From contig JAJXYN010000009.1 of assembly GCA_021780535.1 (NCBI GenBank), positions 224,360 to 288,359 on the forward strand: 64,000 nt of DNA, given 5' to 3'. This DNA comes from a bacterium. GTDB taxonomy: Bacteria > Patescibacteriota > Patescibacteriia > JAGPKW01. Positions 43,265-64,000 of this stretch are shown piece after piece. The position numbers and the translations under genes are program-made. Within the stretch, counting starts at the first letter, position 1, and every line of letters starts with the position of its first letter. Under the pieces are notes generated by a model. That model did not search any database. It saw only the letters and a program-made list of their open reading frames with translations, and was not told the origin of the DNA.

Positions 43265-43280
43265 AATTAACATTAAAAAT

Positions 43281-45864: not shown

Positions 45865-45874
45865 CTTAAAATAT

Positions 45875-46015: not shown

Positions 46016-46115
46016 CAAATCAATAAAAGTATTATAAAATGATTATATTGACCCAACTTAATATTTTCTATGAAAGAGACTTTTTATAATGTCTATCTTT
46101 GTTATCGTCTATATA

Positions 46116-46170: not shown

Positions 46171-46204
46171 TTTTAGATTTAATAAAATTAACATTAAAAA
46201 AAAT

Positions 46205-47827
46205 ATGATAAAAGAAAATAGAAATTTAAAATATGCTATATATCTTCGTAAATCAACTGATAGTGAAGATAGACAAGTTCAGTCAATAGAAGACCAAGAA
46301 AAAGAAATAAATATTTTAGTAGAAAGAGAAGGAATTAAAAAAGAAAATATAATAGAAATCTTCAAAGAAAGTAAATCTGCCAAAAAACCTGGGAGAGAAG
46401 AATTCAATAGAATGATGTGTTTAATAAAAGAAGGCAAAATTGATAGTGTTATGTGTTGGAAATTAAATCGTTTAGCAAGAAATCCTATCGATGGTGGCGA
46501 AATTCAATGGTTACTACAACAAAATATAATTAAATCAATATTAACAAATGAAAGAGAATACCTTCCAACTGACAATGTTCTTATGATGGCAGTTGAATTG
46601 GGAATGGCAAATCAATTTGTATTAGACTTAAGTAAAGATGTTAAAAGAGGAATGAGGGGTAAAGTAGAAAAAGGCTGGAGACCAATGAGAGCTCCCATTG
46701 GATATATAAACGACAAAGCTGGTAATAAAGGAGAGAAAAAGATTTTTAGAGATGAAACTAGATTTGATATAGTGAGAAAGTGTTGGGAGCTTTTATTTAC
46801 AAGAAAATATACAGTACCAGAAATTACAGAAATAGCTAATGAAACATATGGTTTAAGAGACTATAAAGGTGAGAAAATAAATAATAGCACCTTTTATAAG
46901 ATATTTAGAAATACTTTTTATTATGGAGAGTTTAGTTATTGTGGCGAAGTGTATCAAGGAAAACACGAACCAATGATAACAAAAACAGAATTTGAATACG
47001 CTCAAGATATTTTAAGTGGTAGTAAACATAATAAAAGACCAAAAACAAAAAATCTCCCATACAATGGAATTATTACTTGTGGCGAATGTGGCTGTTATAT
47101 TACATCAGAAGAGAAAATAAAATATGTTAAGTCAGAAAATAAAGTCAAAAATTATGTATATAATAAATGTTGTAGTAATAATAGATGTTTTAAATGTTCT
47201 CAGAAGCCAATAAAATATGAAGAATTGTCTGAACAAGTTAAAAAATACCTAGAAACAATAAAGATAACTGATAAATTTTTTAATTTTGCCCTAATGGTTT
47301 TCAAAGAAAGAAATATGGTAGAAGAAGAAAATAGAAATAGTATCATAAGAAACTTACAATCAAATCATACGGAGGTTATAAAAAAGATAGATAACTTAAT
47401 AAATTTATTTGTATCTCAAAATAATCAAAATAGAGAGCTTTTAAGTGAAGATGAATATATTTCTCAAAAATCATTTCTTGCTAAAGAAAAAATAAGAATA
47501 GAACAACAAATAAAGGATATTATGGAAGAAACATCAACTCAAGATAAAAGATTTGATGACGAAATAAACTTTGTTCATACAGAAATAGAAATGTTTGATA
47601 ATGGGAGTTATGAAAAAAGAACTCAAATATTAAGAAAAATGGGAGAAAGCTTTATTTTAAAGGATGGAATGCTTGATATACAATTAAAAAAAGTATTTCT
47701 AACATTCACTACTTACCAGTCAGAGTATAAAAAGAGAGAAATAGAACTAAGCAATATAAGAAATTTCAGCGAATTTAAAACAAAAAAAGAAGCTGATGCT
47801 TCTTTTCGTTCTATCTGGAGCGGGTAA
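46205..47827 (+). CDS. Large serine recombinase (integrase)
   Basis: N-terminal resolvase domain (AIYLRKSTDSEDRQ…LNRLARN), recombinase domain and Cys-rich zinc ribbon (CGECGCYIT…C…C). 540 aa. Confidence 0.85.
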   Translation: MIKENRNLKYAIYLRKSTDSEDRQVQSIEDQEKEINILVEREGIKKENIIEIFKESKSAKKPGREEFNRMMCLIKEGKIDSVMCWKLNRLARNPIDGGEIQWLLQQNIIKSILTNEREYLPTDNVLMMAVELGMANQFVLDLSKDVKRGMRGKVEKGWRPMRAPIGYINDKAGNKGEKKIFRDETRFDIVRKCWELLFTRKYTVPEITEIANETYGLRDYKGEKINNSTFYKIFRNTFYYGEFSYCGEVYQGKHEPMITKTEFEYAQDILSGSKHNKRPKTKNLPYNGIITCGECGCYITSEEKIKYVKSENKVKNYVYNKCCSNNRCFKCSQKPIKYEELSEQVKKYLETIKITDKFFNFALMVFKERNMVEEENRNSIIRNLQSNHTEVIKKIDNLINLFVSQNNQNRELLSEDEYISQKSFLAKEKIRIEQQIKDIMEETSTQDKRFDDEINFVHTEIEMFDNGSYEKRTQILRKMGESFILKDGMLDIQLKKVFLTFTTYQSEYKKREIELSNIRNFSEFKTKKEADASFRSIWSG

Positions 47828-47890
47828 GGAGAATCGGACTCCCCTCTTCAGCTTGGAAGGCTGACATAATAGCCACTATACGATACCCGC
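47816..47890 (-). tRNA. tRNA-Gly (anticodon TCC), CCA encoded, with an atypical T-loop (C at position 55)
   Basis: Reverse complement GCGGGTATCGTATAGTGGCTATTATGTCAGCCTTCCAAGCTGAAGAGGGGAGTCCGATTCTCCTTACCCGCTCCA. 7-bp acceptor stem and anticodon stem TCAGC/GCTGA. The 3' 12 nt overlap the recombinase stop. Confidence 0.65.
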
Positions 47891-48822: not shown

Positions 48823-49707
48823 ATGAATTTTATATTTAACGCCTTTTCTAACCTATTCAAACTTATTGAATGGATATTAAAAAAAACATACAAAATCATT
48901 AGGGTTTTAGGATTTTTTGTTTTTACTTTTGTTTTTTTGATTTTTGGATGGATTATATTTTTTCTTATATATAAACTACTTATAGCTAGAATATTAAAAA
49001 ATAAAGAAACTAGAATTGTTAATAAATTTTTTTATGATTGCATAGTATTTTTTATAAAATCTTTTTTAGATACATTTGTGGAAGTGAAAATATGGGGCAA
49101 AAAAAATATATCAAAAGATACTTCAAAGTTATTTATATCAAATCATTTTTCTTCTACTGATCCTTTATTTATGTTTGGTTTTATAAAAGATAGAATCCAT
49201 ATGGTTATTGGACCAGCCTATGATATTCCTGTATTAAAAAATTTTTTAAGAGTACTTGAACAAATAGATGCTACAGAAAATAATAGAAAAAATGTTGTTT
49301 CTAATTCTATAGAATATATAAAAAGAAATGAATCTGTATATATATTTCCAGAAGGAGACTTAAACAACCAACAAGATTTTTTAAATTTTTATCATGGTGC
49401 TGCTAAGATATATATAGAATCTAATGGTATTGCACCAATAATTCCAATAGGGATAGTTGCATCTAAAAAAGATGTTAAAGAATTTAAATTATTTAATATA
49501 AAATCTAAAAAAAATAATAAAACATATAAAAGTTTAAATGTTTTATCTGGTAGATATCTTATTAATATTGGTGAACCTTTAGAATTTCAAGAACTTTTGA
49601 ATAGTGATAAATCTTATGAAGATAAATGTAATCAAATAACTACATTTATAAAAAAATATGTTAAGGAGCTTGTTGATGAAGCTAAATTTGATAAATTTTG
49701 GAATTAA
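48823..49707 (+). CDS. 1-acyl-sn-glycerol-3-phosphate acyltransferase family (PlsC-like)
   Basis: ISNHFSSTDP (H-x4-D) and FPEGDL acyltransferase motifs. N-terminal transmembrane helix. Confidence 0.75.
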   Translation: MNFIFNAFSNLFKLIEWILKKTYKIIRVLGFFVFTFVFLIFGWIIFFLIYKLLIARILKNKETRIVNKFFYDCIVFFIKSFLDTFVEVKIWGKKNISKDTSKLFISNHFSSTDPLFMFGFIKDRIHMVIGPAYDIPVLKNFLRVLEQIDATENNRKNVVSNSIEYIKRNESVYIFPEGDLNNQQDFLNFYHGAAKIYIESNGIAPIIPIGIVASKKDVKEFKLFNIKSKKNNKTYKSLNVLSGRYLINIGEPLEFQELLNSDKSYEDKCNQITTFIKKYVKELVDEAKFDKFWN

Positions 49708-50198
49708 TTCAAATAAATATTTTCTTTATTTGAATCTGATAATATATTTGTTCCCTTTCCATCTGCAGCTAATATTAGGCTTTTATTGAATACTAATTCT
49801 GTTGTTTTTATTTCTTGATTCTTTATTTTAAATTTCATAGTAAATAACTCCCCTTTCCCTACAAATCCATCTGTTGAACCCCCCGCAAAATATATATATC
49901 CTTTAGAATTTGAATACCTTGGGGATTTCATCCAAAGATTAAAGATAGAATTATTATAATATTCTATTCCCACTATTTCCAAATCTTTATTATTAAAATT
50001 TATAGTTGATTGCCCAGCATTAACTATAGAACTTGAATTTACGTTTAACGAAACTTCTATAATTCCTTTTTTTTCATTAATACTTTGATTTAAATAAAAA
50101 TTAGCACTTTCAGCGTTTGCAATATTACAAAATAACAATCCAAACATAAATGGAATAGCTAAAAACAATATATTATTAGATATTGTTATTTTTTTCAT
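49704..50198 (-). CDS. Secreted beta-rich protein, paralog of the N-terminal domain encoded at 50176..51204 (cohesin-like candidate)
   Basis: Signal peptide. LWMKSPRYSNSKGYIYFAGGSTDGF aligns with FWVKSPRIQGNKIFFSGITPGGF of its neighbour. Confidence 0.4.
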   Translation of the reverse strand: MKKITISNNILFLAIPFMFGLLFCNIANAESANFYLNQSINEKKGIIEVSLNVNSSSIVNAGQSTINFNNKDLEIVGIEYYNNSIFNLWMKSPRYSNSKGYIYFAGGSTDGFVGKGELFTMKFKIKNQEIKTTELVFNKSLILAADGKGTNILSDSNKENIYLN

Positions 50199-51204
50199 TT
50201 TTTAATTTATTTCTTCTATTTAAATACGCATTTAGAAGTATTAACACAAAAACTATAAAAAGTAAAGAGATAATTATAACATTATAATTAATAACTGCTT
50301 TTTTTTCATTAATTATAAATGGCCCTATTTTTTCAATTCTATAATTACCAGCTAAATCAACAGCCTTTACTTGTATTTCTTTTGTTAAATCTTGAAATTG
50401 TAATACATAAGGACTTTCTGCTCTTTTAAATGCTTCATCACCTTCTTTAACTTCATAATAATCTATTCCTGAATCTTTATCTTGTGCATTAAATATTATA
50501 GAAAATTTTCCATTACCTATTTTACTATCTTTTATTATTTTTACCGTAAATTCTTCTGGTCTTGTTGTATCTTCTGGATTAACTTTATCTGTGTTGTTAA
50601 TAGAATTATCAATCGGTTTATCTACTACTGGCGTTTGATTATTTACTGGCTGGTTATCAGTATTAGTTGGTGGATTTGCTGTATTATCTTTATTCGTTAC
50701 TGGCTGATTATTATTAGATGAATTGTTATTTGTATTTACAATTTCTAATAATAAATTTTTTATTTTAAATTTATCCTCTGTTGCATTACCATCATTCAAT
50801 AAAAATTTACTATTACTATCTATTTCTATACTTGTGATGCCTGGCTGCTTTGCAACAAATAAAGCAGAGAATATTTTTCCATTTTCTCCATTAAAGCCAC
50901 CTGGTGTTATCCCTGAAAAAAATATTTTATTACCTTGTATTCTTGGACTTTTTACCCAAAAAGCCACAGTAGAGTTACCTTTATAAATTTTTTGTAATTC
51001 TAAAAAATTACTATCAAAAGATAAAGACGATTCAAAAGCATTTATATTAGAGTTTTCTGTATTTATTAAAAAATCTACTCTAAAAACCTCACTAGTTGAA
51101 AGTTTATTACTTGTGGAATTTAAATAAACTGTTGAAGCATTAACATTAAACCCCAACAAAAAAATTGCAAATATAAGTGTTTGTAAAATAATTTTTTTTA
51201 TCAT
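50176..51204 (-). CDS. Two-domain secreted protein with an Asn/Pro/Thr-rich linker and a C-terminal transmembrane anchor (scaffoldin-like candidate)
   Basis: Signal peptide. Domain 1 is homologous to the protein encoded at 49704. NQPVTNKDNTANPPTNTDNQPV linker. C-terminal hydrophobic helix plus basic tail. Confidence 0.4.
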   Translation of the reverse strand: MIKKIILQTLIFAIFLLGFNVNASTVYLNSTSNKLSTSEVFRVDFLINTENSNINAFESSLSFDSNFLELQKIYKGNSTVAFWVKSPRIQGNKIFFSGITPGGFNGENGKIFSALFVAKQPGITSIEIDSNSKFLLNDGNATEDKFKIKNLLLEIVNTNNNSSNNNQPVTNKDNTANPPTNTDNQPVNNQTPVVDKPIDNSINNTDKVNPEDTTRPEEFTVKIIKDSKIGNGKFSIIFNAQDKDSGIDYYEVKEGDEAFKRAESPYVLQFQDLTKEIQVKAVDLAGNYRIEKIGPFIINEKKAVINYNVIIISLLFIVFVLILLNAYLNRRNKLKNEKNNNI

Positions 51205-51212
51205 TTGTTTGA

Positions 51213-52199
51213 TTAATCACCTGTCCAATTATATGCCATTATAGAAAAATCTTTAATATCTATAATACCATCATTATTAAAATCTCCTTCTTTATAGTCA
51301 CTAGCTAACCAATGGAACAAAAGTATTGAAAAATCTATTAAATCAACATTACCATCTCCATTTAAATCACACTTTACCTTATAGTTATTATAATTTTCTG
51401 AATTTTTAATTTTATCATTTGAAATTAATATATTAATATCAATATTTTTACTTGAACCCACAATAGTATCGCTTAATAAATTTTTTGAATATAAAACATA
51501 ATTACCTTCTAATAAATCCTTTGTGTCAAATTGATATATATAATACCCTTGTTTGTTTGTTTTTATGGTATTTAATATTTTTTCTGTATTATCTTTTTTG
51601 TTTTGTAAGAATATTTGAACATCTGATTCTGATAAACCATAGCCATCTATATTAATATTCTCTCCTTTTTTAACTTCATTTACACTAGAGCTGATAGTTG
51701 GGGAAACATAAACATCTGTTACGGATATATAACTTCCCGGATTTAAGCTAACATTGAAATTTACTAAATTTGTTGTTGTTTTATTTTTAGTTTCTGACGT
51801 AACACTAAAAGAATAATCACCATGATAAAAACCATATATACTTTGAGAAAAATTCCCATTATCATCTGATTTAGCATATATTAAAATTTTTCCATCTTTT
51901 AAAATTTTAATTTTTGCATTAGGGATTGTCCTTCCTTGTATAAATATTACAGAGGAAGCAAGATTAACTTTTGAATGAGGCCCTTCATTATCATCTGTTG
52001 GGGATGTACAATCTGGATCTGCTGGATAATCAATTAGACCATCTCCATCATTATCTCTTCCATCCATACATTGTGGTACATATATTATTTTTAATGAAAA
52101 TTGTGGATTTGCTGCAAATGTTTGCTTATTAAAAAACAATGAGATTATAAAAATAATCAATGATGTTGTAAAAAAATTAAAAAATTTTTTATTAACCAT
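51213..52199 (-). CDS. Secreted dockerin-domain protein
   Basis: Two Ca-binding dockerin repeats (DLNGDGNVDLIDFSILL and DFNNDGIIDIKDFSIMA) at the C-terminus. N-terminal DNDGDGLIDYPADPDC. Signal peptide. Confidence 0.65.
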   Translation of the reverse strand: MVNKKFFNFFTTSLIIFIISLFFNKQTFAANPQFSLKIIYVPQCMDGRDNDGDGLIDYPADPDCTSPTDDNEGPHSKVNLASSVIFIQGRTIPNAKIKILKDGKILIYAKSDDNGNFSQSIYGFYHGDYSFSVTSETKNKTTTNLVNFNVSLNPGSYISVTDVYVSPTISSSVNEVKKGENINIDGYGLSESDVQIFLQNKKDNTEKILNTIKTNKQGYYIYQFDTKDLLEGNYVLYSKNLLSDTIVGSSKNIDINILISNDKIKNSENYNNYKVKCDLNGDGNVDLIDFSILLFHWLASDYKEGDFNNDGIIDIKDFSIMAYNWTGD

Positions 52200-52287
52200 C
52201 TTAATTTATACCTTAATTTAAATTAATATTTTATCTGTTAATTATATCATTTTAGATTTTTTATTTATAATAATTATCCACAAAAAT

Positions 52288-52314
52288 AAATATCACGCGA
52301 AGTGCGTGATATTT
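52288..52314 (-). terminator. Terminator of the giant surface protein gene
   Basis: Perfect 11-bp hairpin aaatatcacgc-gaagt-gcgtgatattt, 10 nt after the stop. Confidence 0.55.
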
Positions 52315-52324
52315 ATAAGAAAAA

Positions 52325-55300
52325 TCAATTACCTATTACTGTAAGTGTCATATTTATTGAATACTCTCCACTTCTCTGACTTGCTGGAATTGATTGTAAT
52401 ATTGATACACCCATAATATCCCAATAAGAATTTGTTTGAGTTGCCGATGAAGATGACGCTATAGTAAGTGAATTTTGAGTGCCCTCAATAAAAGATGATG
52501 GACTTGAAAGAACTATACCCGTTGAAGTACCTCCTGGTTTTGGTGTGATAGAGGCAAATGAAGGATCTATAGACATTTGCCCACCTATAGTGTCCGGATC
52601 TGGTCCATCTTTTGCATCTGGTGTGGGGTCATTAAAATCATAACTATCTGTTCCGTCTGACCAAAAAGCAGTTTCTCCATATGATGCTGATAATGATACT
52701 GTCCATAAAGGATTAGCTGTTGAATTTGTTATTCTAATTTTTTGATTATCAAATCCAAATATACCTTGAGAACTTGAACTTGAATAACTAAATGTCCTTG
52801 GGTCCAAACTAAATATTGGATTCGTTATGGAATTTCCATTATTATCCACTATATCTATTGATAAAACACCAGATACTATAGAAACTTCTGGATAATTTGA
52901 GTATGTTTGTATATCTGTACCATCCACATTTACAACTTTAAAACAAAATGTTTTTCCTACCCCTGCATTATTATCAAATAAAGCAAAGTCCCATTTACCA
53001 TATTCTCCTATATTTAAATCACTCATGGAATTTGAAAAATCTCCGATTTCATTATATGTTTGATTTTTAATAGTAGCACCAATTTCATAAGGATCAGAAA
53101 GATTGCTTGTTAAAGCTACTCCACTGGAAACACTTGGATTATCTTTTAGCGCTATTGCCGTTGTCCTTGTTAAAACTGAATATGGGTATTGTGGATTACT
53201 ACATGTACCTGTCCCTTTTTCTGCAAATTGTAATTTAAAAAATCCTTCGTTTTGTAATATTTTGTTTTTAGAAACAGACATTAATAATCTTAATCTAAAA
53301 TCAGACAATGGTTCAATAGATCCTGCTATGTTTTGTTCTGCTATTCCATTTCCAACATCTGACGAATCTGTGTTTTTAAATAGTTTATAAGAGGCTAGAT
53401 TATAATATGGGCTTGTATTAACTGAAACCATAGGATAATTAGTATAATTATCTAATACTTCACCAGTAGATTTAACTAATCTAAAATAATAATTATTACC
53501 TGTAGCGTTTTTAGGGATTAAAGAAAAATCATATTCTCCAACATCATTATTTAATAAATTATTTATATTATTTATTGTTGGATTTTGTTCTGAATAAGAT
53601 TCTTTTTTTGTTGATGTAGATAATAATGTATTACCTATAACACTATCTGAATTAACTAAATTATTATCATAAAATTCCCATTCCTGATTTAAACCAACAC
53701 CATTCCAAGGACCTACTAATGATTTTGAATACTGTAAGACAAATGAAGTAGAGCTTGCTTTAAGTTCTGATAAATTATTTTTTATATTTATTCTTAATCT
53801 TAGTGGATTATTTTTTGAATCAGACAACCCTACTTGATTTTCATTAGCTATTGCCGTTACTGGGTCTATTGCATTTGTATTTGAATACCATCTATAAGAA
53901 TTTTGTGTTAAAGAATTCCCTATAGTTAATTTGGCATAATTTAAATATTCTTCAAAATCAGATCCTTCTGCTCTTATTAATTTAAAATAATATGTTGATT
54001 TTTCTGCGTTTTTTGAATTTAAAGGAAAATCATATTCTCCAGACTGATCTACTTGAATTATGTTTGGATTCAAATCTATTGGGTTTACTTCTGAATACAA
54101 TTCACCAACATTAGAATTAGACAATAACATTTGTGATATTATTGCTGATTGATTTATATTAACCGAATCATAAAATTCCCAGTCTTCTTTAGTCTCAACC
54201 GTATTTAAAGATGTTGTGGGACCGACAGAAACTAATTTAATTAATTTAAAATAATTAAATTTTCCGACCGACAAAATATCCCCACCATTAGATAAAACAT
54301 AAATACCCACATCTTGAACATTAGAAGCATTTGCTATTGTCACGGAATTCATTGCTGAAAAATTTATGCAGTCAATAGAATATGTTGCAGTAAAAACTGT
54401 CCCTTGTTTTTTAATTCTCAAACAATGCGGCCAGGTTGGAGTAACTGTTGGCGAATATAATGTATCTAAATAACCATTATTATTACTATCCCAAGCTGAA
54501 AGAAATGCTGTATTAATATTATCAACATTAACAAAATACCCATTATTTGGTTGTGTTTTTGTAATATCATTTTTAACCATAAGACCCATATTTTCTGAAG
54601 GACTTACATTATCCTGAGAAATACATCTTAAAGTAGCCTCAAAATCTCCATCTATATTATCTTGGTACACTGTTGAATAATCATCTACTGGAGTAACACC
54701 CGTAGCTTCCCATGTATCAACACCTCCAGAATTTATATTTAATGTACCATTTGATTCTGAAAAACTTGTTCCAGAAACTTTATCATTATCAAACGTTTTC
54801 CAATCTGATCTTATTGCCCCACCACTAAAATCATCATAAACTGCATATATATTATTTAAATTTGTTGGTGGGTTTACTGCATTTGGATTACCATAATACA
54901 CATAATAGTCACCTGTTGTTGATGAATTTGTATTTACTGCAATGTCAGACATGAGTCTAAATTGTATATTAGAAGATGTAGAAAACCAATTATCTGCTAT
55001 TCTGTCTAATTCATAATTTTCACCAGTACTTTTTTGAAAAACTACTCTAATATCATCACCACTTGTTTGAGCAATTTGTGTGTTCATTGTGAATGACACC
55101 GTTAGTCCACTTGGCAGTAATGAGTGACTTGTCCCAAAATTTATCTTTTGTCTTTTTGAATAATAATTATTCCACCATTTTGCACCAACACTAGGATTTG
55201 AAACTGTTTTCCATGGACCATTTATACTCATTTTTGAATATTGTAAAATGAAACCTTTTGAAGTAAGTGCTTCATTTTTTGCTTGAACGTTTAATCTTAA

Positions 55301-57235
55301 TCTTGCTAAATCATTTTCATTTATAAAAGATTCTGAATTTTCTTGAGCTAATGAAATTGTTGGTGTTATTAGATCATTGTTTGCATACCATCTGTAATAG
55401 TTTTGAACCAAATGACTTCCAACCAACATTTCTGGATAATTTAAATAGCTACTCAATTCTTTATTATCTGTTGCATTAAATAATCTCAAACAATAATCAC
55501 CATCCAAAATGGTGCTAGAAATTTTAATACTATATTCTAGTTCCGTGTATCCATTGTTTAATAAAGCTATTTGACTACTAGTATTTGTTGTATCCATACC
55601 TCTGCCTGATGTAAATGTGTATGCTTCTGGATTATCAAATATTGGCAACGTTAAATCTTGATCTATATATTGGGTTGAATCTGACATAACAATATTTGAA
55701 GCATCTGGTATATCTTTCCATGTTGTAGTGCTTAAACAACTACCCCCCGTTTTTGACCCATATTGTATTTTTAAACCTTTACCAGCTGTTGTATCTGATT
55801 CTCCAGTATTTGAAATTGCAAATCTAATTCTATAATTTATATTTTTTGTTATTAATGGTGGGTTTTCATTATAATTCGTTGTTAACCAACCATTGTTATC
55901 ATTTAATGCTTTTGTATCATCTCTCCATTTGTATTTATATTGATTCAATGTTGGTTGTGGCGTGTATTGTATATTTTTAAAATTAAGACCTTGAGCCCAT
56001 GTTGCAAAATTATAACTAGTCCCTGTTGGATAATATTCTCTTTGCAATGTGATTGTTGTATTTGCAGAATATCTAGATGAAAAAATACCAGCTGGATAAT
56101 TATTTGTATTATTATTCATACTTGAATAAGCCGTTGACATTCTACAAGTTGTATTTGGATTTGATGTGGTTGTTATAGCAGCAGTTTTAGAACCACCCCC
56201 AGAATTTGTTTTAAATTTATAATCTACTGATAAATTTGGATGGCTAAATACATATATATCAAATGATTTAATTGCTCCTGATATTTGAGAGCCCATGGCT
56301 ACTGTTGTTTCTGATGTATTTTGTGCAACCCCATTTCCTAGCGTTATTATTGTACCGAGTGAACCATTACCAAGTGCTGCTGCTTGTGAATATCCAGATC
56401 CGTACACCCAAGTATTAGCTCTTGTGGCTGAAGATATTGTTGCTGTATTATATGCTGCCGTTGTATTTGAACCACTTGCACCATTTGAACCAGATATAGC
56501 AACTCTTTGCACATTCCAAGCACTTCCCCACTCTATCGCGTAAACAGTACTTGTTGCTAATGACAAAATACCATCATTATTACTATTATATCTTTCCCAA
56601 TTTATCGTATTTGTCCCTGTTGGATAAAGTCTTAGCCAACCTGCATTATAATAACCAGAATTTGCGGCGCTATCTTCTATATTTGTTCCAGAACCTAACC
56701 CCCCACCAAATATAGAAACTTTATTAATATTAGTCCATGGGGTAATGGAAGATGTTGTTCCTGACTGTAATCTAGTTGTTGTATTTGTATATCTTGGAGT
56801 TGATAAATCTAATATATCTAATGTCTTAAATCCATTATTTGTACAATCAACTAAACACTCAACTACTGTCACCACACCAACCCAACTTGATGAACCTACT
56901 GCATATCTTTTTAGTTCTACCGATGTTGTACTTCCTGTTGTTGGTAAACTTTTATTTGCTCCTAATGGTAATTTTGATATTTTTACATAACTGTTTGTGG
57001 GACTTTTTATGACATTCCCACTTTCAGCTCCTCGTATTAGAATAAAATGATCTGGAGATAATGGATTATTTAAAGTCAAATTATATGTAGTGCCAGTAAA
57101 ACCTGTTGTTATATTATATTCTGTAACTCTAAAAACATCACTAGCAGAGACATTACGTGATACAAAAAAACAACCTAAAACAAGGCTTCCTAATAAAACT
57201 TTTTTAAAAATATTCCCCAAACTCCTTGGATTCAT
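52325..57235 (-). CDS. Giant (1636 aa) Thr/Ser/Asn-rich secreted surface protein with four internal repeat modules and a WxL-like C-terminal domain
   Basis: Signal peptide. Repeats sharing NYP…YRWY…RLRL…LQYS. The C-terminal roughly 110 aa are homologous to the C-terminus of the 210-aa protein encoded at 58714 (GQMSIDPS…YWDIMGVSILQSIPA…EYSINMTLTV). Confidence 0.7.
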   Translation of the reverse strand: MNPRSLGNIFKKVLLGSLVLGCFFVSRNVSASDVFRVTEYNITTGFTGTTYNLTLNNPLSPDHFILIRGAESGNVIKSPTNSYVKISKLPLGANKSLPTTGSTTSVELKRYAVGSSSWVGVVTVVECLVDCTNNGFKTLDILDLSTPRYTNTTTRLQSGTTSSITPWTNINKVSIFGGGLGSGTNIEDSAANSGYYNAGWLRLYPTGTNTINWERYNSNNDGILSLATSTVYAIEWGSAWNVQRVAISGSNGASGSNTTAAYNTATISSATRANTWVYGSGYSQAAALGNGSLGTIITLGNGVAQNTSETTVAMGSQISGAIKSFDIYVFSHPNLSVDYKFKTNSGGGSKTAAITTTSNPNTTCRMSTAYSSMNNNTNNYPAGIFSSRYSANTTITLQREYYPTGTSYNFATWAQGLNFKNIQYTPQPTLNQYKYKWRDDTKALNDNNGWLTTNYNENPPLITKNINYRIRFAISNTGESDTTAGKGLKIQYGSKTGGSCLSTTTWKDIPDASNIVMSDSTQYIDQDLTLPIFDNPEAYTFTSGRGMDTTNTSSQIALLNNGYTELEYSIKISSTILDGDYCLRLFNATDNKELSSYLNYPEMLVGSHLVQNYYRWYANNDLITPTISLAQENSESFINENDLARLRLNVQAKNEALTSKGFILQYSKMSINGPWKTVSNPSVGAKWWNNYYSKRQKINFGTSHSLLPSGLTVSFTMNTQIAQTSGDDIRVVFQKSTGENYELDRIADNWFSTSSNIQFRLMSDIAVNTNSSTTGDYYVYYGNPNAVNPPTNLNNIYAVYDDFSGGAIRSDWKTFDNDKVSGTSFSESNGTLNINSGGVDTWEATGVTPVDDYSTVYQDNIDGDFEATLRCISQDNVSPSENMGLMVKNDITKTQPNNGYFVNVDNINTAFLSAWDSNNNGYLDTLYSPTVTPTWPHCLRIKKQGTVFTATYSIDCINFSAMNSVTIANASNVQDVGIYVLSNGGDILSVGKFNYFKLIKLVSVGPTTSLNTVETKEDWEFYDSVNINQSAIISQMLLSNSNVGELYSEVNPIDLNPNIIQVDQSGEYDFPLNSKNAEKSTYYFKLIRAEGSDFEEYLNYAKLTIGNSLTQNSYRWYSNTNAIDPVTAIANENQVGLSDSKNNPLRLRINIKNNLSELKASSTSFVLQYSKSLVGPWNGVGLNQEWEFYDNNLVNSDSVIGNTLLSTSTKKESYSEQNPTINNINNLLNNDVGEYDFSLIPKNATGNNYYFRLVKSTGEVLDNYTNYPMVSVNTSPYYNLASYKLFKNTDSSDVGNGIAEQNIAGSIEPLSDFRLRLLMSVSKNKILQNEGFFKLQFAEKGTGTCSNPQYPYSVLTRTTAIALKDNPSVSSGVALTSNLSDPYEIGATIKNQTYNEIGDFSNSMSDLNIGEYGKWDFALFDNNAGVGKTFCFKVVNVDGTDIQTYSNYPEVSIVSGVLSIDIVDNNGNSITNPIFSLDPRTFSYSSSSSQGIFGFDNQKIRITNSTANPLWTVSLSASYGETAFWSDGTDSYDFNDPTPDAKDGPDPDTIGGQMSIDPSFASITPKPGGTSTGIVLSSPSSFIEGTQNSLTIASSSSATQTNSYWDIMGVSILQSIPASQRSGEYSINMTLTVIGN

Positions 57236-57352
57236 TAAAATATTTTATAATTTATTAATAATATTATAGCATAAATAAATAAATAATATATATACACAAA
57301 AACATAAAAAAGAGACTACTATCTAAAAGTAAACCTCTTTTTTTAATTTAAA

Positions 57353-58597
57353 TTATTTAGTTTTTTTCTTTTTTGTTAATTTCTTTTTTGGTGAAGTTAT
57401 TGATTTAACTTTATTTATCATAGAAATTCTTTTTTTATTATAATCTTCCTCTAGATCATCTGGTACTTTAATTTCGTCTTTTGAATCTACCATATATGGC
57501 GCTTTTATTTTGTTAACACTTGCTAACAATTTCCAATTAACTTCATATTTCTCTGCTAATACTTTTATATTTGTAGCTCTTGCAACTGTATGTTTTTTCC
57601 ATGTTCCTATCCAATTTTGTCTTTTCTTCCATATAGACAAAAGATAGATATTAAATGTTATAAATAATAATATAATAATTTCAAACATTAAACCTTTTGC
57701 TGTTGGAAATGAAAAAAATGATATTTCTTTTTCCGATTCTAATATTTTTAATTTGCTTTCATCTTTTAGATCTCCTTTAATGTTTGGATTATATTTTGCC
57801 ACTAATCTAGCTGTATAAAATCCTCCCCAAAAAGGTTTTGGTAATTCAAAATTCCAAACCGATGTTTCTCCTCTCAATACAATAAATTCTCCACCTACTG
57901 TTTTATGAGTTATTCCTAATATATTTTTTACGATTACATTTACATCTGTATTCACTGAAACATTACCACTATTTTTGATTGATGAATTAAACACAAAAGA
58001 TCCATCTTGTTTATTTGATATTTCAAATTTACCCAAAGATATTTTTTTAATCAAATCACCTGGAATTGTTATAGAAACCCTTACCCCGGTTCTTATAGAT
58101 AATTGTATTCCTGATTTTTTATTATTTTTATCAACTGTATCATCTTTTTTTTCTTGAATTAAAAAACATCCATCATGTTCACCAGAATCTGTTTTGGCTG
58201 GAATAGAAATTGTAAAAGGTATAATTTCATTTGTTCCGGGATCTAATTCTACTTCATTTTTATCTAACTTAATCCAAGATCCTACTTCTATCTTGTTTTC
58301 ACCAAATTGCTTACAAGCAAAGCCACCATCTGTTGATGATACGGAATCAGCTGCATATACTGAAAATGTTTTTTTAACTTTTGTGTTATTAATCACCATT
58401 AGACCATCTCTTTTACTTGAACCTAAATCTATATCATATGAAAAAGCGCTATCACTTTTTCTAACTGTTCCATTTTCTAAATCTGCTGGCCTTAATCCAA
58501 AACCACCATATTCAAAGGCTTTTACTGTTGGTATTAAAAAACTAGAAACAAGAAAAACCAATAAAAACGACGATGTTAAATACCTTTTATTTATCAT
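57353..58597 (-). CDS. Cell-surface protein with a C-terminal transmembrane anchor (CscA/DUF916-like candidate) followed by a LysM-like tail
   Basis: Signal peptide, beta-rich ectodomain, transmembrane helix (IIILLFITFNIYLLSIW), then HTVARATNIKVLAEKYEVNWKLLASVNKIKAPYMVDSKDEIKVP (LysM pattern) and a poly-Lys end. Confidence 0.45.
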   Translation of the reverse strand: MINKRYLTSSFLLVFLVSSFLIPTVKAFEYGGFGLRPADLENGTVRKSDSAFSYDIDLGSSKRDGLMVINNTKVKKTFSVYAADSVSSTDGGFACKQFGENKIEVGSWIKLDKNEVELDPGTNEIIPFTISIPAKTDSGEHDGCFLIQEKKDDTVDKNNKKSGIQLSIRTGVRVSITIPGDLIKKISLGKFEISNKQDGSFVFNSSIKNSGNVSVNTDVNVIVKNILGITHKTVGGEFIVLRGETSVWNFELPKPFWGGFYTARLVAKYNPNIKGDLKDESKLKILESEKEISFFSFPTAKGLMFEIIILLFITFNIYLLSIWKKRQNWIGTWKKHTVARATNIKVLAEKYEVNWKLLASVNKIKAPYMVDSKDEIKVPDDLEEDYNKKRISMINKVKSITSPKKKLTKKKKTK

Positions 58598-58713
58598 AAT
58601 TTAATTTAATTACTAAATAATAATATAAGAAATATTGATTATAATTATATCATGAATATATTTTTTAGAAAACAAAAAAGAATGGTTTAAACACCATTCT
58701 TTTTAATAAATAA

Positions 58714-59346
58714 TTATTTAGCAACAACTGAAATTGTCATTGGTAAAGAATAATCTGCTGCTGTTTGCATAGCTGGGATTGTTTGTGTTAATGCAACACC
58801 TTGCAACGTCCAATCTCCAATTTTAGCAGAAGTAGCATCAGCATCTAATAATGTAATAGAAGCTACAGTTGAAGAAAAATTACTTGCTGAACCTTTTACA
58901 ACGCCTGTATTTGCAGCTGTTGATTTACCATGAGTCAATACTCCAACTGAAGGATCAATTGCTAATTGACCACTAGTAGCTACATCATTTTTATAATCAA
59001 AATTAACAGTATTACCAGCGTCTTGCCATTTTGCAGCAGTTGCAGCTATTGATGTTGTCCAACCATTAGGAGCAGCATCAGGGTTTGATACTAAAATTTG
59101 CTGTGTTGGAGAACCTAAAGTAGCTGTAGAAGTTTCAGATACCATGCTTGCAGTAACAGGAGCAAAGGCAATAGCAGGAGCAGCTATCGTAGCATAAGTA
59201 CCATCCACAATATCAACCGCTAAAGTACCTGGATTAATTTTTAAAGTAAATTGAGCCATATTAGAAGCAAGAACAACTCCAGCAACTAATACCATTCCTG
59301 TCATAGCTAAAGCAGGAATACTTATTTTTCTAAATGATTTTGACAT
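58714..59346 (-). CDS. WxL-domain-like small surface protein (CscB-like)
   Basis: Signal peptide. Ala/Thr-rich. The C-terminus carries WTTSI and DWTLQGVALTQTIPA…DYSLPMTISVV, a two-motif WxL-type domain shared with the giant protein. Confidence 0.5.
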   Translation of the reverse strand: MSKSFRKISIPALAMTGMVLVAGVVLASNMAQFTLKINPGTLAVDIVDGTYATIAAPAIAFAPVTASMVSETSTATLGSPTQQILVSNPDAAPNGWTTSIAATAAKWQDAGNTVNFDYKNDVATSGQLAIDPSVGVLTHGKSTAANTGVVKGSASNFSSTVASITLLDADATSAKIGDWTLQGVALTQTIPAMQTAADYSLPMTISVVAK

Positions 59347-59514: not shown

Positions 59515-60546
59515 TCAATATCCTACGAATTGACGGTAATCATTTTGATCAACAGACCAAAGTTTCATATTCGGGACACCATCCCGCCCTTTGTATTTTT
59601 CAAAAAGATTTTGATATATTTCAATTAGCTTTTGGTTTCTTGCAACAGTTACTACATCTTCTCCATAATTTATTATAAATTTTGCACTTTTAACATCCTC
59701 CTTCTTTTTTGCATAACCAGCGAGATACTCTTTTCCGTTTATTGCGGCTGTTACATTGTTGTAGGCCATTGCAATAAAAAACGGACTTTCATTTTTATAA
59801 TAATCCCTTAAATAATCCCATTTATTTCCAACAAAATCCGTAGAGTAATCAATGTTCATAGCATCTTCTATTCTTATTTTATCGTTAGCATTATACCCAA
59901 TATTGATTTGGGCTGCGCCAAACGATGCTTCCCCTTTATATAAATACCACTTTCCATTACCATTAAAATACTTTACATATACATCAAATGCTTTTCTCTG
60001 AGTATTCCAAGCTTGTTTAACATTTGAAATACTTCCATTACTTTTTCCAAAATATAAAGATTCTTCATTGATTTTGGTTTCAACCCAAAGCTGAGCACTA
60101 AGTAGAGATGCTGGAATACTGTATTTATATTGTGCTTTCAGAATTGGAGAAATAAATCTCTCCGGAGTCCCATTAATTGGGTCCGCAGAAAAATCCTCAA
60201 ACTTTAGACTTTTGAGTGGTTTATGTAGCTCCTCGTTCCACTTTATGATAGCTTCATTGAGTGAATTTGTTTCATTAACAAAAACTAATTGCATTGTTAA
60301 CGTATTTATTTCAGCTGTTTTTTCACTTGCTGTTTTATAATACTTAACAAACAAAATGGAAGAAATAGAAAATGCAATAAACAAAGAAATGGCTATGATT
60401 ATAAATCTATTTTTTGAATATCTTGTCTTTTGATGTTCTGTGTACATTTTGTCGGCGTGTTGTATCCACGTAGAAAAGTCCATACTCATATCATCAGAAA
60501 GTTCTATTTCACTCATAACATCCTCCCAGATGTCTTCATGAACCAA
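59515..60546 (-). CDS. Membrane-anchored lytic transglycosylase-like (SLT/lysozyme-like) protein
   Basis: N-terminal transmembrane helix. AQLWVETKINEES (E-S region), GAAQIN and AMAYNNVTAAINGKEY (AYNxG) motifs. Confidence 0.45.
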   Translation of the reverse strand: MVHEDIWEDVMSEIELSDDMSMDFSTWIQHADKMYTEHQKTRYSKNRFIIIAISLFIAFSISSILFVKYYKTASEKTAEINTLTMQLVFVNETNSLNEAIIKWNEELHKPLKSLKFEDFSADPINGTPERFISPILKAQYKYSIPASLLSAQLWVETKINEESLYFGKSNGSISNVKQAWNTQRKAFDVYVKYFNGNGKWYLYKGEASFGAAQINIGYNANDKIRIEDAMNIDYSTDFVGNKWDYLRDYYKNESPFFIAMAYNNVTAAINGKEYLAGYAKKKEDVKSAKFIINYGEDVVTVARNQKLIEIYQNLFEKYKGRDGVPNMKLWSVDQNDYRQFVGY

Positions 60547-60603: not shown

Positions 60604-62376
60604 TTATTTTTTAATAGAATATTGCTTTCCGAATAATAAATCATTGTATATAATTGAGAAATTTGAAAGTTGGGATGTTGATAAAATAGAATTAAAAGAA
60701 TTTGATAATTTTACATACTCTGGTGTTGTTTTATCCACATATAATGGTCTAATATTATTTAATTCTTCTATATTAAATAAATCTAACAATGTATCTTTTG
60801 TTTCTACTCCTATTTTATTTAATATTTGTTCCCCAAATCTAAACATGTTTACATGCCCAACATTTTCTATTTTATTTTTATTGATGAATATTAATGGCGT
60901 TGAATGAAGAGTTAATTCATTTAATGTGTTTGTTTTTTTATAAACTTCTTGATTCATTCCTAAAAATGGTAAATGATCACCTGTTATTATTATTATAGAA
61001 TTTTGATCATTTTTTCTTATTTTATCAACAAATTCTGAAATTTCTTTTGTTGAATAATAAATGGAATTTGAATAATTATTTATCCAATCATTGTTTATAT
61101 TATTTGTTATAATGTGTGGCCTTTTGCTATTTAATGAATATGGTATATGTGTTGACAATGTCATATAATAATTAAATTTTGGTTTACTATTATTATTATT
61201 TTTATTAGCTAGATCATATGCTTGATTTAAAAATGATTGATCTGATAATTTACCATCATTAAGATCGTCCATATTAAAATCATTTAAAGAAAAATAATTT
61301 TTAAATCCTATTTTTTTATAAGCATTTGTTCTATTAAAAAAATTCGCATAATCTGGGTGAAATGCATTTGTTTCGTACCCTAATTCCGACAATATGTTTG
61401 GAAGGCATGCTAAATTATTTTTTAACTCAGTCTGGAATACTACACTATTATTTAAAACTGGAATGCCACACAATAATTCAAACTCTGGATCAGCTGTCTT
61501 ACCTTCAAACGTTGGGCTTACTAAAAAATTATCTTTGGATTGATTTCTTAAATCTCTAAAATCTTTATAAAAAGGATCTTGAGAATAACTTGAATTATTT
61601 AATAATTTCGGATCCCACAATGACTCCACTAAAATAAAATAAATATTTGGAAGTGGCTTTAAAGAAGAAGCAATTGTAGATGAAAATGGATAAGAAGATA
61701 AAATTTTATTTTTACCAATAGAATTTAACGCATCCTCTACTGTTTGTTGTTTTGGAATTTCTTTTTTATTATCTGATCTTATGTATTGGTCTATAAAATA
61801 CATAAACGGTCCTTCGTGTTTATAATTTTCTTGTTGATTCCAAAATAAATATGACACATCTGCTTTATTTATTATAGAATCATACTGCTTTGAAAATATA
61901 TTTAAAGAAATTATAAACAACATTAATATTATAAATAATACCAATCCTGATTTTCTAAATTTAAAATTTAAAATTAATACGAGTACTATTATAGATAAAG
62001 CAATAATTATAAGTACTACAAATATTGGGTTAATCATCCATATAGCTATTATCGCTTCTTTTGCTGAAAATACATCATCCATTATTATTGGTGCTCCAAA
62101 AAAAGCAGTTTTTATTGAGTCTGATACTTGTATAGTAAGTAATATTATAAATTGTATTATTAAAAATATATTTATTTTTTTAGAAAATAAAAATAATATA
62201 TAGCTGATAAATACAAAAAAAATAATATCTGAGATTATATATATTGAACTTAATAAATTTAATTTAAAAAAAATAATATTTATTAAATTTATTATTATAT
62301 AAAAAAATATTCCAGAGATTATTGGTGTAAAATAGAATATTTTTGTTTTAATTATTTCTAAATTTATTTTATTCAT
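60604..62376 (-). CDS. LtaS-like sulfatase-family membrane phosphotransferase (lipoteichoic acid synthase family)
   Basis: 5 N-terminal transmembrane helices and an extracellular alkaline-phosphatase-superfamily domain (ILVESLWDP, FEGKTADPEFELLCGIP, GDHLPF). Confidence 0.75.
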   Translation of the reverse strand: MNKINLEIIKTKIFYFTPIISGIFFYIIINLINIIFFKLNLLSSIYIISDIIFFVFISYILFLFSKKINIFLIIQFIILLTIQVSDSIKTAFFGAPIIMDDVFSAKEAIIAIWMINPIFVVLIIIALSIIVLVLILNFKFRKSGLVLFIILMLFIISLNIFSKQYDSIINKADVSYLFWNQQENYKHEGPFMYFIDQYIRSDNKKEIPKQQTVEDALNSIGKNKILSSYPFSSTIASSLKPLPNIYFILVESLWDPKLLNNSSYSQDPFYKDFRDLRNQSKDNFLVSPTFEGKTADPEFELLCGIPVLNNSVVFQTELKNNLACLPNILSELGYETNAFHPDYANFFNRTNAYKKIGFKNYFSLNDFNMDDLNDGKLSDQSFLNQAYDLANKNNNNSKPKFNYYMTLSTHIPYSLNSKRPHIITNNINNDWINNYSNSIYYSTKEISEFVDKIRKNDQNSIIIITGDHLPFLGMNQEVYKKTNTLNELTLHSTPLIFINKNKIENVGHVNMFRFGEQILNKIGVETKDTLLDLFNIEELNNIRPLYVDKTTPEYVKLSNSFNSILSTSQLSNFSIIYNDLLFGKQYSIKK

Positions 62377-62486
62377 GAAGAAAGTATAATATAAAAATAG
62401 ATATATGGAAATATGGAAAATTTAAATATAAAAAAATAGGTTCCAGATATACATCTGAAACCTACAATAAACAGATAGACTTGAGA

Positions 62487-63014
62487 TTATCCTGCTATTA
62501 CTGTAATTTGTTTTATAACAAAGTCTGTAATTGCATAGGCCGCAGCTATAATAGCTATACCAATCATTCCTGATGTCATAAGCTTTCTTGCTGAACCAAT
62601 TTTTGTTGGATCTCCTTTTGAAATCATCCATTGTATTCCACCCCAAATAATGAAAATAAGAGCTACAGTTCCAGATATTCCAAGTATTACTTTAATAACA
62701 TTTCCTATTATTACTGGAACAGATGTTGTTGTATTTAATCCACCAGAACCAGCTAATGATGCTGCCGAATTAGTAGAACCTGATGTATTTAAGTTGTCAT
62801 ATTTAGAAACAGCTGAACAAGTAGCGGCACCAGTATCAGTAGCGCATGTACAAGAAAAACCCGTACCAGAAGTTACACAAGTTGTTGTACTACCAGATCC
62901 ACAATTACCCGCGCTTGATCCACATGTTACCGTATCTGCAAACACAGATGATGTTGACATTACTAGCACTGAAAATATCGCAATAAATATTGAGCTTAAT
63001 AAAAATTTTTTCAT
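62487..63014 (-). CDS. Small secreted/membrane protein with VirB2/TrbC-like topology, copy A (Cys/Thr/Gly-rich variable ectodomain)
   Basis: Signal peptide. Variable region CGSSAGNCGSGSTTTCVTSG…. The conserved C-terminal two-helix core VPVIIGNVIKVILGISGTVALIFIIWGGIQWMISKGDPTKIGSARKLMTSGMIGIAIIAAAYAITDFV is identical to copy B. Confidence 0.45.
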   Translation of the reverse strand: MKKFLLSSIFIAIFSVLVMSTSSVFADTVTCGSSAGNCGSGSTTTCVTSGTGFSCTCATDTGAATCSAVSKYDNLNTSGSTNSAASLAGSGGLNTTTSVPVIIGNVIKVILGISGTVALIFIIWGGIQWMISKGDPTKIGSARKLMTSGMIGIAIIAAAYAITDFVIKQITVIAG

Positions 63015-63298
63015 TTTGATTAGTTAAAAAATTATTTAATTTTTGTTATTTTTATATTTTATCACAAAAAAATAAAATATGGAAATATTGACACATGGGG
63101 ATATGTTAACTACCCTGCTATTACTGTAATTTGTTTTATAACAAAGTCTGTAATTGCATAGGCCGCAGCTATAATAGCTATACCAATCATTCCTGATGTC
63201 ATAAGCTTTCTTGCTGAACCAATTTTTGTTGGATCTCCTTTTGAAATCATCCATTGTATTCCACCCCAAATAATGAAAATAAGAGCTACAGTTCCAGA
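62490..63298 (-). repeat. Direct repeat: the 3' roughly 185 nt of the two tandem pilin-like genes are nucleotide-identical (62490-62675 and 63113-63298)
   Basis: Read directly: ctgctattactgtaatttgttttataacaaagtctg…gagctacagttccaga is the same in both copies. Upstream parts diverge completely. Confidence 0.8.
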
Positions 63299-63637
63299 CA
63301 CACCAAGTATTACTTTTATTACTGAGCCTATTATTGCTGGAACAGAAGTACTAGAAAGACCTGCTTGATCACTAACTGTTTCTAGTCCTGCTCCAAATGG
63401 CTTTTTGCAAGAACAACTTCCAAGAGCACCATCTCTTGAACACATTGTACCACCAGTACAATCATCACCACATAAACTTCCCTTATCTGAAGGAATTGTT
63501 CCCGTTTGGTCAATTACGCAACCACCCGCCGCATAAGCACATGCTGCACAGACTGATGCATTAACTTTATTATTACTTACGAAAATAATAATAATTGTAA
63601 AAACACTCACAAACAATAACTTAAATATATTTTTCAT
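63110..63637 (-). CDS. Small secreted/membrane protein with VirB2/TrbC-like topology, copy B
   Basis: Signal peptide. Different Cys-rich ectodomain (CAACAYAAGGCVIDQTG…CGDDCTGGTMCSRDGALGSCSCKK). Identical C-terminal core. Confidence 0.45.
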   Translation of the reverse strand: MKNIFKLLFVSVFTIIIIFVSNNKVNASVCAACAYAAGGCVIDQTGTIPSDKGSLCGDDCTGGTMCSRDGALGSCSCKKPFGAGLETVSDQAGLSSTSVPAIIGSVIKVILGVSGTVALIFIIWGGIQWMISKGDPTKIGSARKLMTSGMIGIAIIAAAYAITDFVIKQITVIAG

Positions 63638-63672: not shown

Positions 63673-64000
63673 TTAGTTTCTAAACATTCTATATATTTTA
63701 TTTATTTCTACTATTTCTATATTTGTATTTAATTTTTTTGATTTCTCTAATATTATATCCTTATAATCTTTTTGTTCACGAATGTATTTTTCTGAGAGAT
63801 GATAAAGAATTAAAGATGAGAACAAATTAGAATTTAATGAGTTGGATGAAAATTTTTTAACTAAAGATTCTAAATCAGTGTGAGCAGCATCACATTCAGC
63901 TTTAGTTAAAAAAGTACATTCATGCATCAATATCTCCGTCTGTCCTATTTTTTCTAAATCAACTGGAAGAGAATCTCCACAATAAGTTACATATTTATAA
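63673..64000 (-). CDS. Hypothetical protein, probably 5'-truncated by the window end
   Basis: The frame stays open upstream of the annotated Met (…GDSLPVDLEKIGQTEILMHECTFLTKAECDAAHTDLE…) through position 64000. Confidence 0.3.
   Translation of the reverse strand, partial: YKYVTYCGDSLPVDLEKIGQTEILMHECTFLTKAECDAAHTDLESLVKKFSSNSLNSNLFSSLILYHLSEKYIREQKDYKDIILEKSKKLNTNIEIVEINKIYRMFRN

Follow-up and report, generated by a model that had tools for sequence, protein, structure and literature searches.

Concerted evolution of a tandem pair of pilin-like genes in a member of the Patescibacteria

How can two neighbouring genes be identical in one half and unrelated in the other, and what kind of protein would be built in this way? 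The question is raised by a gene pair close to the end of a stretch of 64,000 nt (the window; contig JAJXYN010000009.1 of assembly GCA_021780535.1) from an ultra-small bacterium of the Patescibacteria. Both genes are on the minus strand and each encodes a protein of 175 amino acids. Copy B (63110..63637) lies upstream of copy A (62487..63014), with a distance of 623 nt from start to start and a spacer of 95 nt. The original prediction, made from the DNA letters, had described this arrangement and about 185 nt of identical 3' sequence; an ungapped comparison in coding orientation gives exactly 185 nt in a single perfect run, nucleotides 340-524 of the coding sequence (CDS), which corresponds to 63114..63298 in copy B and 62491..62675 in copy A. 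On the 5' side of this run a patchy identity of about 80% continues for some 50 nt, back to CDS nucleotide 290. The match breaks off with the third base of the final sense codon, and both flanks are without similarity. The 5' halves are unrelated: the N-terminal parts reach 24% identity in a forced alignment, with non-synonymous divergence (dN) about equal to synonymous divergence (dS). We consider it probable, though far from settled, that the two genes form an array for pilin-type proteins of the VirB2-like kind (PF18895), displayed on the surface or in a pilus, in which a core maintained by gene conversion is combined with distinct heads.

Architecture and family of the two proteins

Each protein starts with a predicted signal peptide (residues 1-27, 63557-63637, in copy B; residues 1-26, 62937-63014, in copy A; like all parts of the two genes on the minus strand). 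Cleavage would occur between VNA and S in copy B and between VFA and D in copy A; these sites were judged by eye, without a dedicated predictor. The signal peptide is followed by an ectodomain, residues 28-97 (63347-63556) in copy B and 27-97 (62724-62936) in copy A, and the rest is a hairpin core, residues 98-175, which together with the stop codon occupies 63110-63346 and 62487-62723, respectively. The ectodomains are rich in Cys, Gly, Ser and Thr, which make up 49% and 65% of the residues in the two copies, and Ser and Thr alone account for 41% in copy A. That the mature N-terminal regions are unrelated and nevertheless both rich in Cys, Gly and Thr had been seen correctly from the beginning; the Cys counts given at that time (8 in copy A, 11 in copy B) were too high, the correct numbers being 6 and 8, respectively. 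All Cys of both proteins are confined to the ectodomain. Because their number is even, as in all paralogues examined (8, 6, 6, 4 or 0), the ectodomains probably form four (copy B) and three (copy A) intramolecular disulfides.

Hydropathy peaks are found at residues 3-21, 105-123 and 149-167, and AlphaFold2 predicts helices at residues 3-21, 99-131 and 136-174 of copy B. Only the secondary structure of this monomer model, which is based on a 25-sequence alignment, is usable (predicted local distance difference test, pLDDT, 57; predicted template modelling score, pTM, 0.29). The loop between the two hydrophobic helices is short and basic (KGDPTKIGSARK), and 3 Lys and 1 Arg are counted in the loop SKGDPTKIGSARK; the core peptide quoted in the original prediction was correct. 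In the pilins VirB2, TraA and TrbC, for which structures of the F- and T-pilus are available, a signal peptide precedes two hydrophobic helices that are connected by a short basic loop, and the N terminus is outside. The two proteins of the window share this layout, with a positively charged loop in the same place.

Family assignment points in the same direction. Both proteins match T4SS_pilin (PF18895), named for type IV secretion systems (T4SS), with 36.8 bits for copy A and 33.8 bits for copy B against a gathering threshold of 26.6 bits, and positions 2-71 of the 71 positions of the profile are covered. The same family is assigned in precomputed annotation to 34 of 35 homologues. To this extent the proposed VirB2/TrbC-like nature stands. 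In NCBIfam no more than a weak match was obtained, to NF045849, a family of pilin-like conjugal transfer proteins of integrative and conjugative elements (ICE) of Mycoplasma.

Copies B and A are probably one transcription unit, because a terminator-like hairpin follows copy A and nothing comparable is present between B and A. The hairpin (62436..62465, minus strand) consists of a GC-containing stem of 13 bp followed by a U-run, begins 22 nt past the stop codon of copy A and folds with -16.4 kcal/mol (z = -4.0); the spacer between B and A folds weakly. A scan for promoters found 10 sigma-70-like sites, compared to 10.8 in shuffled sequences, and was not above background. Open reading frames (ORFs) on the plus strand that overlap the pair, such as 62650-63027, are antisense shadows without support. 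The base composition is uniformly about 25-30% G+C, without local anomaly.

Concerted evolution of the cores by gene conversion

At least four genomes have the array at one and the same chromosomal position, and the order of its orthologous ectodomain types is shared as well. It has two genes in the window, three in each of the relatives represented by contigs L004 and L005, and at least four in L008. For typing of the ectodomains, 25 family members were aligned. Type 1, with the pattern CxxCxY..GGC.., includes copy B, and the orthologues of copy B, L004_1 and L005_1, have kept all 8 Cys. Type 2 has the pattern A.G.CG..., type 3 pilins are short and free of Cys (KYDQISL...), and L008_1 stands for type 4. 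Copy A combines types 4 and 3 as a mosaic: its signal peptide is type-4-like and resembles that of L008_1, it is followed by a unique segment rich in Cys, Thr and Gly, and the linker at residues 71-97 (KYD...GGLNTT) is homologous to the whole mature N terminus of the type 3 pilins (pairwise E = 3e-6).

Between orthologues, the ectodomains have 39-72% identity, and within a type no Cys is lost. Ectodomain dN amounts to 0.18-0.62, about 2-7 times that of the core, and the pairwise dN/dS ratio by the method of Nei and Gojobori (NG86) is about 0.2-0.7, with dS near saturation and few orthologues. These regions had been called hypervariable. Judged by their sequences, they are fast-evolving scaffolded modules of a few discrete, old types, and diversifying selection, which had been considered as well, is not shown, with pairwise dN/dS below 1 across genomes.

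The cores have a different history. They were compared over 219 nt, with dS and dN again calculated according to Nei and Gojobori. Within a genome they differ at 0-10 positions (19-21 for copy 3 of L008), between genomes at 35-46 positions, most of them synonymous. In terms of dS, cores of one genome are 0-0.11 apart (copy 3 of L008 up to 0.24) and cores of different genomes 0.5-1.1, with a core dN of 0.05-0.15. Since dS is high between genomes and close to zero within, synonymous sites in the core are free to change, yet the differences are erased within each genome. Likewise, the identity between copies exceeds what chance or constraint would produce, because the very same 219 nt differ at 35-46 positions from one genome to the next. 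At the protein level the cores of A and B are 96% identical. The core clusters by genome, whereas the ectodomain clusters by orthology.

Perfectly identical runs are also found in the other genomes and are 147-343 nt long (243-299 nt in L005). The longest, in L004, joins copies that are 3.8 kb apart and reaches 103 nt past the stop codon. The L005 genome has a fourth paralogue, unlinked to the array and located on another contig, and the core of this paralogue is only 63% identical and not homogenised, which ties homogenisation to the linked array.

A tract-like event was indeed detected between close strains. Contig L002, which comes from another sample, matches the window with 99.5% identity over 2,199 nt and has 10 differing sites. 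Five of these fall into CDS nucleotides 406-480 of copy B (window positions 63232, 63206, 63164, 63161 and 63158), and at all five the window's copy B has the base of copy A, which itself is the same in both strains. The chance that any interval of 75 nt holds five of the 10 differences is about 1.5e-3, and five random changes would all agree with copy A with a probability of about 4e-3. Most simply, these sites are read as a recent conversion tract from A to B of 75-185 nt in the lineage of the window, with the 185-nt tract of copy B as recipient and that of copy A as donor, the latter because its sequence is the same in the window and in L002. The dS values within and between genomes together with the conversion-type sites of L002 bear out the earlier suggestion that gene conversion keeps the cores homogeneous, and concerted evolution by gene conversion is shown in four lineages.

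Taken by itself, the window would also be compatible, without any ongoing conversion, with one recent duplication of a pilin gene after which the N-terminal part was exchanged (for example through domain shuffling or import), for this would leave an identical run of 185 nt beside 5' parts that cannot be aligned. We regard such a history as very improbable. The ectodomain types are orthologous across four genomes and the paralogues must therefore predate the split of these genomes (core dS 0.5-1.1), but in each lineage it is by genome that the cores group; moreover, conversion-type change was seen between strains that are 99.5% identical. Still harder to accept is an artefact of assembly or polishing, in which reads of two similar copies were collapsed into identity. 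The two other assemblies of the same organism, GCA_021833805.1 and GCA_027355865.1, could be taken as a hint in this direction, since their short-read contigs break inside the repeat (L001, and DAIEHF010000006.1 by coordinate arithmetic) and a contig of 764 nt, L003, cycles through it. However, in L001 the core of copy B is read independently in full, as are 166 nt of that of copy A, with the same sequence; in the assembly that contains L002 the copies still differ at five sites, which shows that collapse does not occur automatically; and long contigs that stem from unrelated samples and pipelines again have identical cores (L004, 117 kb; L005, 39 kb; L007, 60 kb). L003 itself joins the 5' part of copy A, the core, the B-to-A spacer and the start of copy A, and is either a cycle in the de Bruijn graph or a real extra copy of A in the sample concerned.

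Known pilin systems and the function of the array

The mature proteins of the window are about twice as long as the canonical pilins VirB2, TraA and TrbC, owing to the N-terminal ectodomain. Canonical pilins can be cyclised or acetylated and polymerise with bound lipid; in the proteins of the window there is no evidence for any of this. In Neisseria, gene conversion among the pilin paralogues pilE and pilS shuffles the variable part into one expression locus, and type IV pilins in general combine a conserved hydrophobic segment for assembly with a variable, disulfide-bonded exposed domain. Conversion among paralogues and modular design are alike in both cases, but this is an analogy only, because protein family and machinery are unrelated. 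Furthermore, conversion in the window homogenises the constant part, and every copy has a start codon and a signal peptide of its own.

Closer relatives are the pilin genes of other Patescibacteria. By use of PF18895 and PF04956, Quinonero-Coronel et al. (2025; PMC12102498) found VirB2-like pilins in 1,948 assemblies of Patescibacteria in which VirB4 is present as well, with the pilin gene near virB4 in only 1,135 of them, and described 441 arrays of 2-11 genes with a within-array identity of 25% on average and 54% at most. The array in the window falls under their definition, with two genes and a spacer of 95 nt (three to four genes in relatives), and resembles the published arrays in phylum, in belonging to PF18895 and in consisting of tandem, small, pilin-like genes that are chromosomal and free of a relaxase. 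The published arrays are often origin-proximal, and in a syntenic relative some 11 kb separate the array from rpmH-rnpA/yidC. The difference is in the pattern of divergence: the published arrays are divergent throughout, whereas the cores in the window are 96-100% identical and only the ectodomains differ. Accordingly, the identity of the whole proteins A and B (51% by BLASTP, 56% by MAFFT) is at or above the published maximum of 54%. In Ca. Southlakia epibionticum ML1 a series of pilin genes is part of the T4SS cluster and essential (Wang et al. 2023; PMC10633639); unlike this series of the Saccharibacteria, the array in the window is not beside virB4, as judged from the ORFs scanned. In the searchable literature on Patescibacteria pilins we found no description of Cys-rich N-terminal ectodomain types combined with concerted evolution of the core, and full-text searches gave no report of gene conversion or concerted evolution of these pilins. 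GCA_021833805 and GCA_027355865 have no entry in the examined part of the supplement to PMC12102498.

A precedent for the mode of evolution is the Trw system of Bartonella. According to PMC2883598, which cites Nystedt 2008, the tandem copies of trwL (VirB2) undergo concerted evolution as well as diversification, and variant pili mediate host-specific adhesion. Both systems have tandem VirB2-type genes (in Trw trwL, and also trwJ, which corresponds to VirB5), variant surface-exposed components and recombination among the copies, and for both the proposed role is host-specific adhesion rather than substrate transfer, with no coupling protein nearby. Trw belongs to a diderm alphaproteobacterium and its array is within a complete T4SS operon, whereas the organism of the window is of the monoderm type; and Trw pilins lack an added ectodomain and vary inside the pilin, whereas the proteins of the window have a separate Cys-rich module of about 70 amino acids and conversion is confined to the hairpin. 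Tandem pilin arrays of Patescibacteria and concerted evolution of T4SS pilins are thus both precedented, and the system is not new in kind, although the pair illustrates it with unusual clarity.

How would the array work? Each protein would be exported by means of its Sec signal peptide and come to lie with the N terminus outside, its two hydrophobic helices being connected through the basic loop. The N-terminal domain of about 70 residues would then be the exposed part that contacts a partner, and the hairpin would have to be compatible with membrane, assembly machinery and adjacent subunits. Short-tract, non-reciprocal recombination between the tandem copies, acting repeatedly, keeps the hairpins alike across the array and halts where homology ends, at the junction of ectodomain and core. 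Because it stops there, old ectodomain "cassettes" persist while the cores evolve in concert. By analogy to the essential T4SS pilin series of Saccharibacteria and to Trw of Bartonella, we infer surface display or co-assembly into a T4SS-type pilus for contact with a host cell; this role is deduced from family homology and the literature, because VirB4, VirD4 or VirB6 was not recognised nearby among the ORFs scanned. It is tempting to speculate further that all paralogues co-assemble via the shared hairpin into one T4SS-type pilus or lattice, with differing disulfide-knotted heads side by side, and that gain, loss or fusion of head cassettes, brought about by recombination between the identical cores, retunes to which host cells the epibiont can attach. 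The arrays of two, three and four genes already seen and the mosaic copy A are consistent with such cassettes; a mosaic filament of this kind nevertheless seems doubtful to us.

A look at the wider family puts the hairpin into perspective. An exhaustive phmmer search yielded 21,817 cluster representatives at E <= 1e-3. Many members fuse two to six hairpin cores (e.g. L011 10982-11770, L014 9890-10597, P0219, P0249 and P0267). Some, with 1,000-2,450 amino acids, have an N-terminal PF18895 core followed by Big_5, TIG, Laminin_G_3 or CBM_4_9 domains, and in P0286 and P0299 (about 2,400 amino acids) immunoglobulin (Ig), lectin and carbohydrate-binding module (CBM) domains are joined to one core. 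Six distant arrays (L011-L016) have 2-10 genes with cores that are 25-47% identical to the core of the window and look, by appearance and without computed within-array identities, as divergent from one another. Some of their members have Cys-rich C-terminal tails, with up to 21 Cys per protein. Since Cys-rich or adhesin-type extensions occur at the N or the C terminus, a topology with both termini outside fits, and the hairpin may be viewed as a general carrier of extracellular modules at either end. As far as these sequences tell, homogenised cores are peculiar to the clade of the window. The distant array L013, from Komeilibacteria, has 10 pilin genes, two of which (7837-8226 and 8265-8657) are nearly identical over the full length, whereas the other eight are highly divergent; this pair looks like a recent whole-gene duplication.

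Several observations weigh against pilin-type proteins as we favour them. The family by which the relationship to TrbC/VirB2 had been expected to show, PF04956, stays below the threshold of 27.9 bits in both proteins (20.0 and 19.2 bits, E ~1e-3), and this part of the original assignment did not hold, although a precomputed match to PF04956 is present on two homologues (P0017, P0021). Foldseek with the low-confidence model of copy B against the PDB returned nothing with E < 1, only generic helical hairpins, and a profile search of PDB sequences gave a chance match to glycophorin and no solved pilin. Because neither search reaches a solved pilin, membership in the family rests on the Pfam hidden Markov model. 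VirB4, VirD4 and VirB6, for which a search nearby had been proposed, were not recognised among the ORFs of the window that were scanned with Pfam (29 ORFs, of about 430 amino acids or more across 1-35 kb and of >=120 amino acids across 35-64 kb) or in about 20 kb upstream in a syntenic relative. In the L004 genome, 10 kb more became accessible via a GyrA homologue, again without T4SS genes, and no T4SS ATPase was found with Pfam among the ORFs around the unlinked paralogue of the L005 genome (contig L010) or among ten large ORFs beside the six distant arrays. The pilus itself is still hypothetical and has not yet been seen in any Patescibacteria (2025 review; PMC12857230). Finally, for the family members of 1,000-2,400 amino acids with the same core, the role of an anchor fits at least as well as that of a polymerising subunit.

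These points lead directly to an alternative that we hold to be possible, if rather unlikely: the proteins could be membrane-anchored surface proteins that never polymerise and are independent of a T4SS, the PF18895 hairpin being a two-helix anchor by which small Cys-rich or large adhesin domains are presented at the cell surface, together with the neighbouring cluster of WxL/Csc-like surface proteins, and homogenisation of the core would then reflect nothing but tandem homology and a shared membrane constraint. In addition to the missing T4SS genes near the array of the window and near the six others, in the ORFs scanned, this is favoured by the conserved neighbours, which are envelope and surface genes (an LtaS-like enzyme, a WxLIP_PGBD protein, a secreted protein of 1,636 amino acids and cohesin/dockerin-like proteins), and by the members of up to 2,450 amino acids that bear Ig, lectin and CBM domains after the same core or combine two to six cores in one protein. 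On the other hand, Pfam makes the family homologous to VirB2-type pilins, the equivalents in Saccharibacteria are inside the T4SS cluster and essential, and pilin genes are near virB4 in 1,135 assemblies. In addition, the very strong purifying selection over the whole hairpin including the loop (dN 0.05-0.15 at dS ~1) suggests more than a passive anchor. An unrelated family of small proteins with two transmembrane (TM) helices, such as holins, was named in the original prediction as the outcome that would overturn it. Small size, two TM helices and a charged loop are indeed what one would expect of a holin, but PHROGs gave no match for either protein, to a holin or to any other phage family, T4SS_pilin is the only Pfam family above threshold, and a predicted cleavable signal peptide is followed by a secreted domain of 70 amino acids. 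As the locus is also chromosomal, syntenic, flanked by housekeeping genes and free of phage genes, this explanation is the least credible of all, and a conversion-maintained array of VirB2-like pilin-type proteins is the reading that we retain.

Genomic surroundings and implications

Upstream of the array the conserved gene order is yidC facing rpmH-rnpA-yidD, gyrA, tdk, an S1-domain gene, rpsF-ssb-rpsR, an AP endonuclease gene and a gene for a metallo-beta-lactamase (MBL)-fold protein. The latter (Lactamase_B/Apyc1-like) is the direct upstream neighbour in the window, where its 3' part (63673..64000, minus strand) runs off the end. Downstream, the array is followed by genes for the LtaS-like enzyme, a membrane protein of about 350 amino acids with motifs of soluble lytic transglycosylases (SLT), a secreted protein of 210 amino acids, the WxLIP_PGBD/LysM-like protein and a secreted giant of about 1,630 amino acids.

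The LtaS-like protein (60604..62376, minus strand) is a polytopic membrane enzyme of the sulfatase family (PF00884, 1.4e-33); its NCBIfam LtaS score of 78.6 bits is far below the equivalog cut-off. Its gene is directly downstream of the array in all four genomes (L004 14888-16684, L005 11765-13510, L007 1313-3082). The superfamily includes pilin phospho-form transferases, and the enzyme could modify the envelope or the pilins. In L004, a region at 11343-14244 with a PMT_2-like glycosyltransferase gene and an amine-oxidase gene is inserted inside the pilin array. Given this glycosyltransferase and the 41% Ser and Thr in the ectodomain of copy A, O-glycosylation of the latter is conceivable.

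An SLT-like ORF had been placed 2 kb upstream of the pair. As the genes are on the minus strand, this ORF (59515..60546, minus strand) is in fact downstream; it encodes a membrane-anchored protein of 343 amino acids with lytic-transglycosylase-like motifs (SAQLWVET, GAAQIN, MAYNN) and is syntenic in relatives. The motifs E-S/T, GxxQxN and MAYN are invariant across five orthologues, but only one of the five touches PF01464 (SLT), weakly and with E = 3e-5, and two have Glucosaminidase matches at 0.008. The protein of the window has no match in Pfam, NCBIfam or, by phmmer, the PDB, and hhalign against Slt70 of E. coli was negative. A homologue search gave two proteins only, and the AlphaFold2 model from a 3-sequence alignment is unusable (pLDDT 37). 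Thus, the SLT assignment is weak.

Further downstream, window positions 49704-59346 (minus strand) hold a syntenic cluster of secreted and surface proteins that resembles the Csc/WxL cell-surface complexes of Firmicutes. It consists of a 210-aa protein with a C-terminal WxL-like motif, GDWTLQG (58714-59346), a WxLIP_PGBD protein with weak M23/LysM-like matches at its C terminus (57353-58597), the giant protein of 1,636 amino acids (52325-57235) and small cohesin-, dockerin- and Big_6-like proteins (49704-52199), all encoded on the minus strand.

Homologues carry Patescibacteria labels, and GyrA of the clade is closest (62-64%) to that of Magasanikbacteria, Komeilibacteria and Kuenenbacteria, an indication of an ABY1-like lineage. 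The window is rich in housekeeping genes (rpoD, dnaG, typA, pyk, gpmI and tRNA genes); Rfam identified three tRNAs and nothing else. A pair similar to type III restriction-modification systems, an N6_N4 methylase (39477-41195) and a ResIII helicase (37230-39473), adjoins a DUF2779 gene, and a large serine recombinase (46205-47827) abuts tRNA-Gly (47816-47890); the region 35760-47890 may be an integrated element. A methyl-accepting chemotaxis protein in the window (30091-31806, minus strand) and a homologue of the large subunit of RuBisCO on contig L010 of a relative (15531-16994) are notable for so reduced a genome.

What does the array mean for the biology of these organisms? A T4SS-like apparatus with a series of pilins is essential for epibiotic life in the only genetically tractable Patescibacteria. 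In the array described here, the boundary at the SVP motif (residue 98) marks which part is kept identical and which parts are free to differ. The identical part is a candidate interface for assembly or for the machinery, and the free part a candidate surface for contact with the host. The boundary offers constructs, antibody targets and a prediction of co-assembly, and the conversion tracts can serve as a population-genetic marker for the dynamics of such arrays in metagenomes. If the copies were indeed to co-assemble into a mosaic filament, gene conversion would be the mechanism that keeps them compatible for co-polymerisation, and not a by-product of tandem homology.

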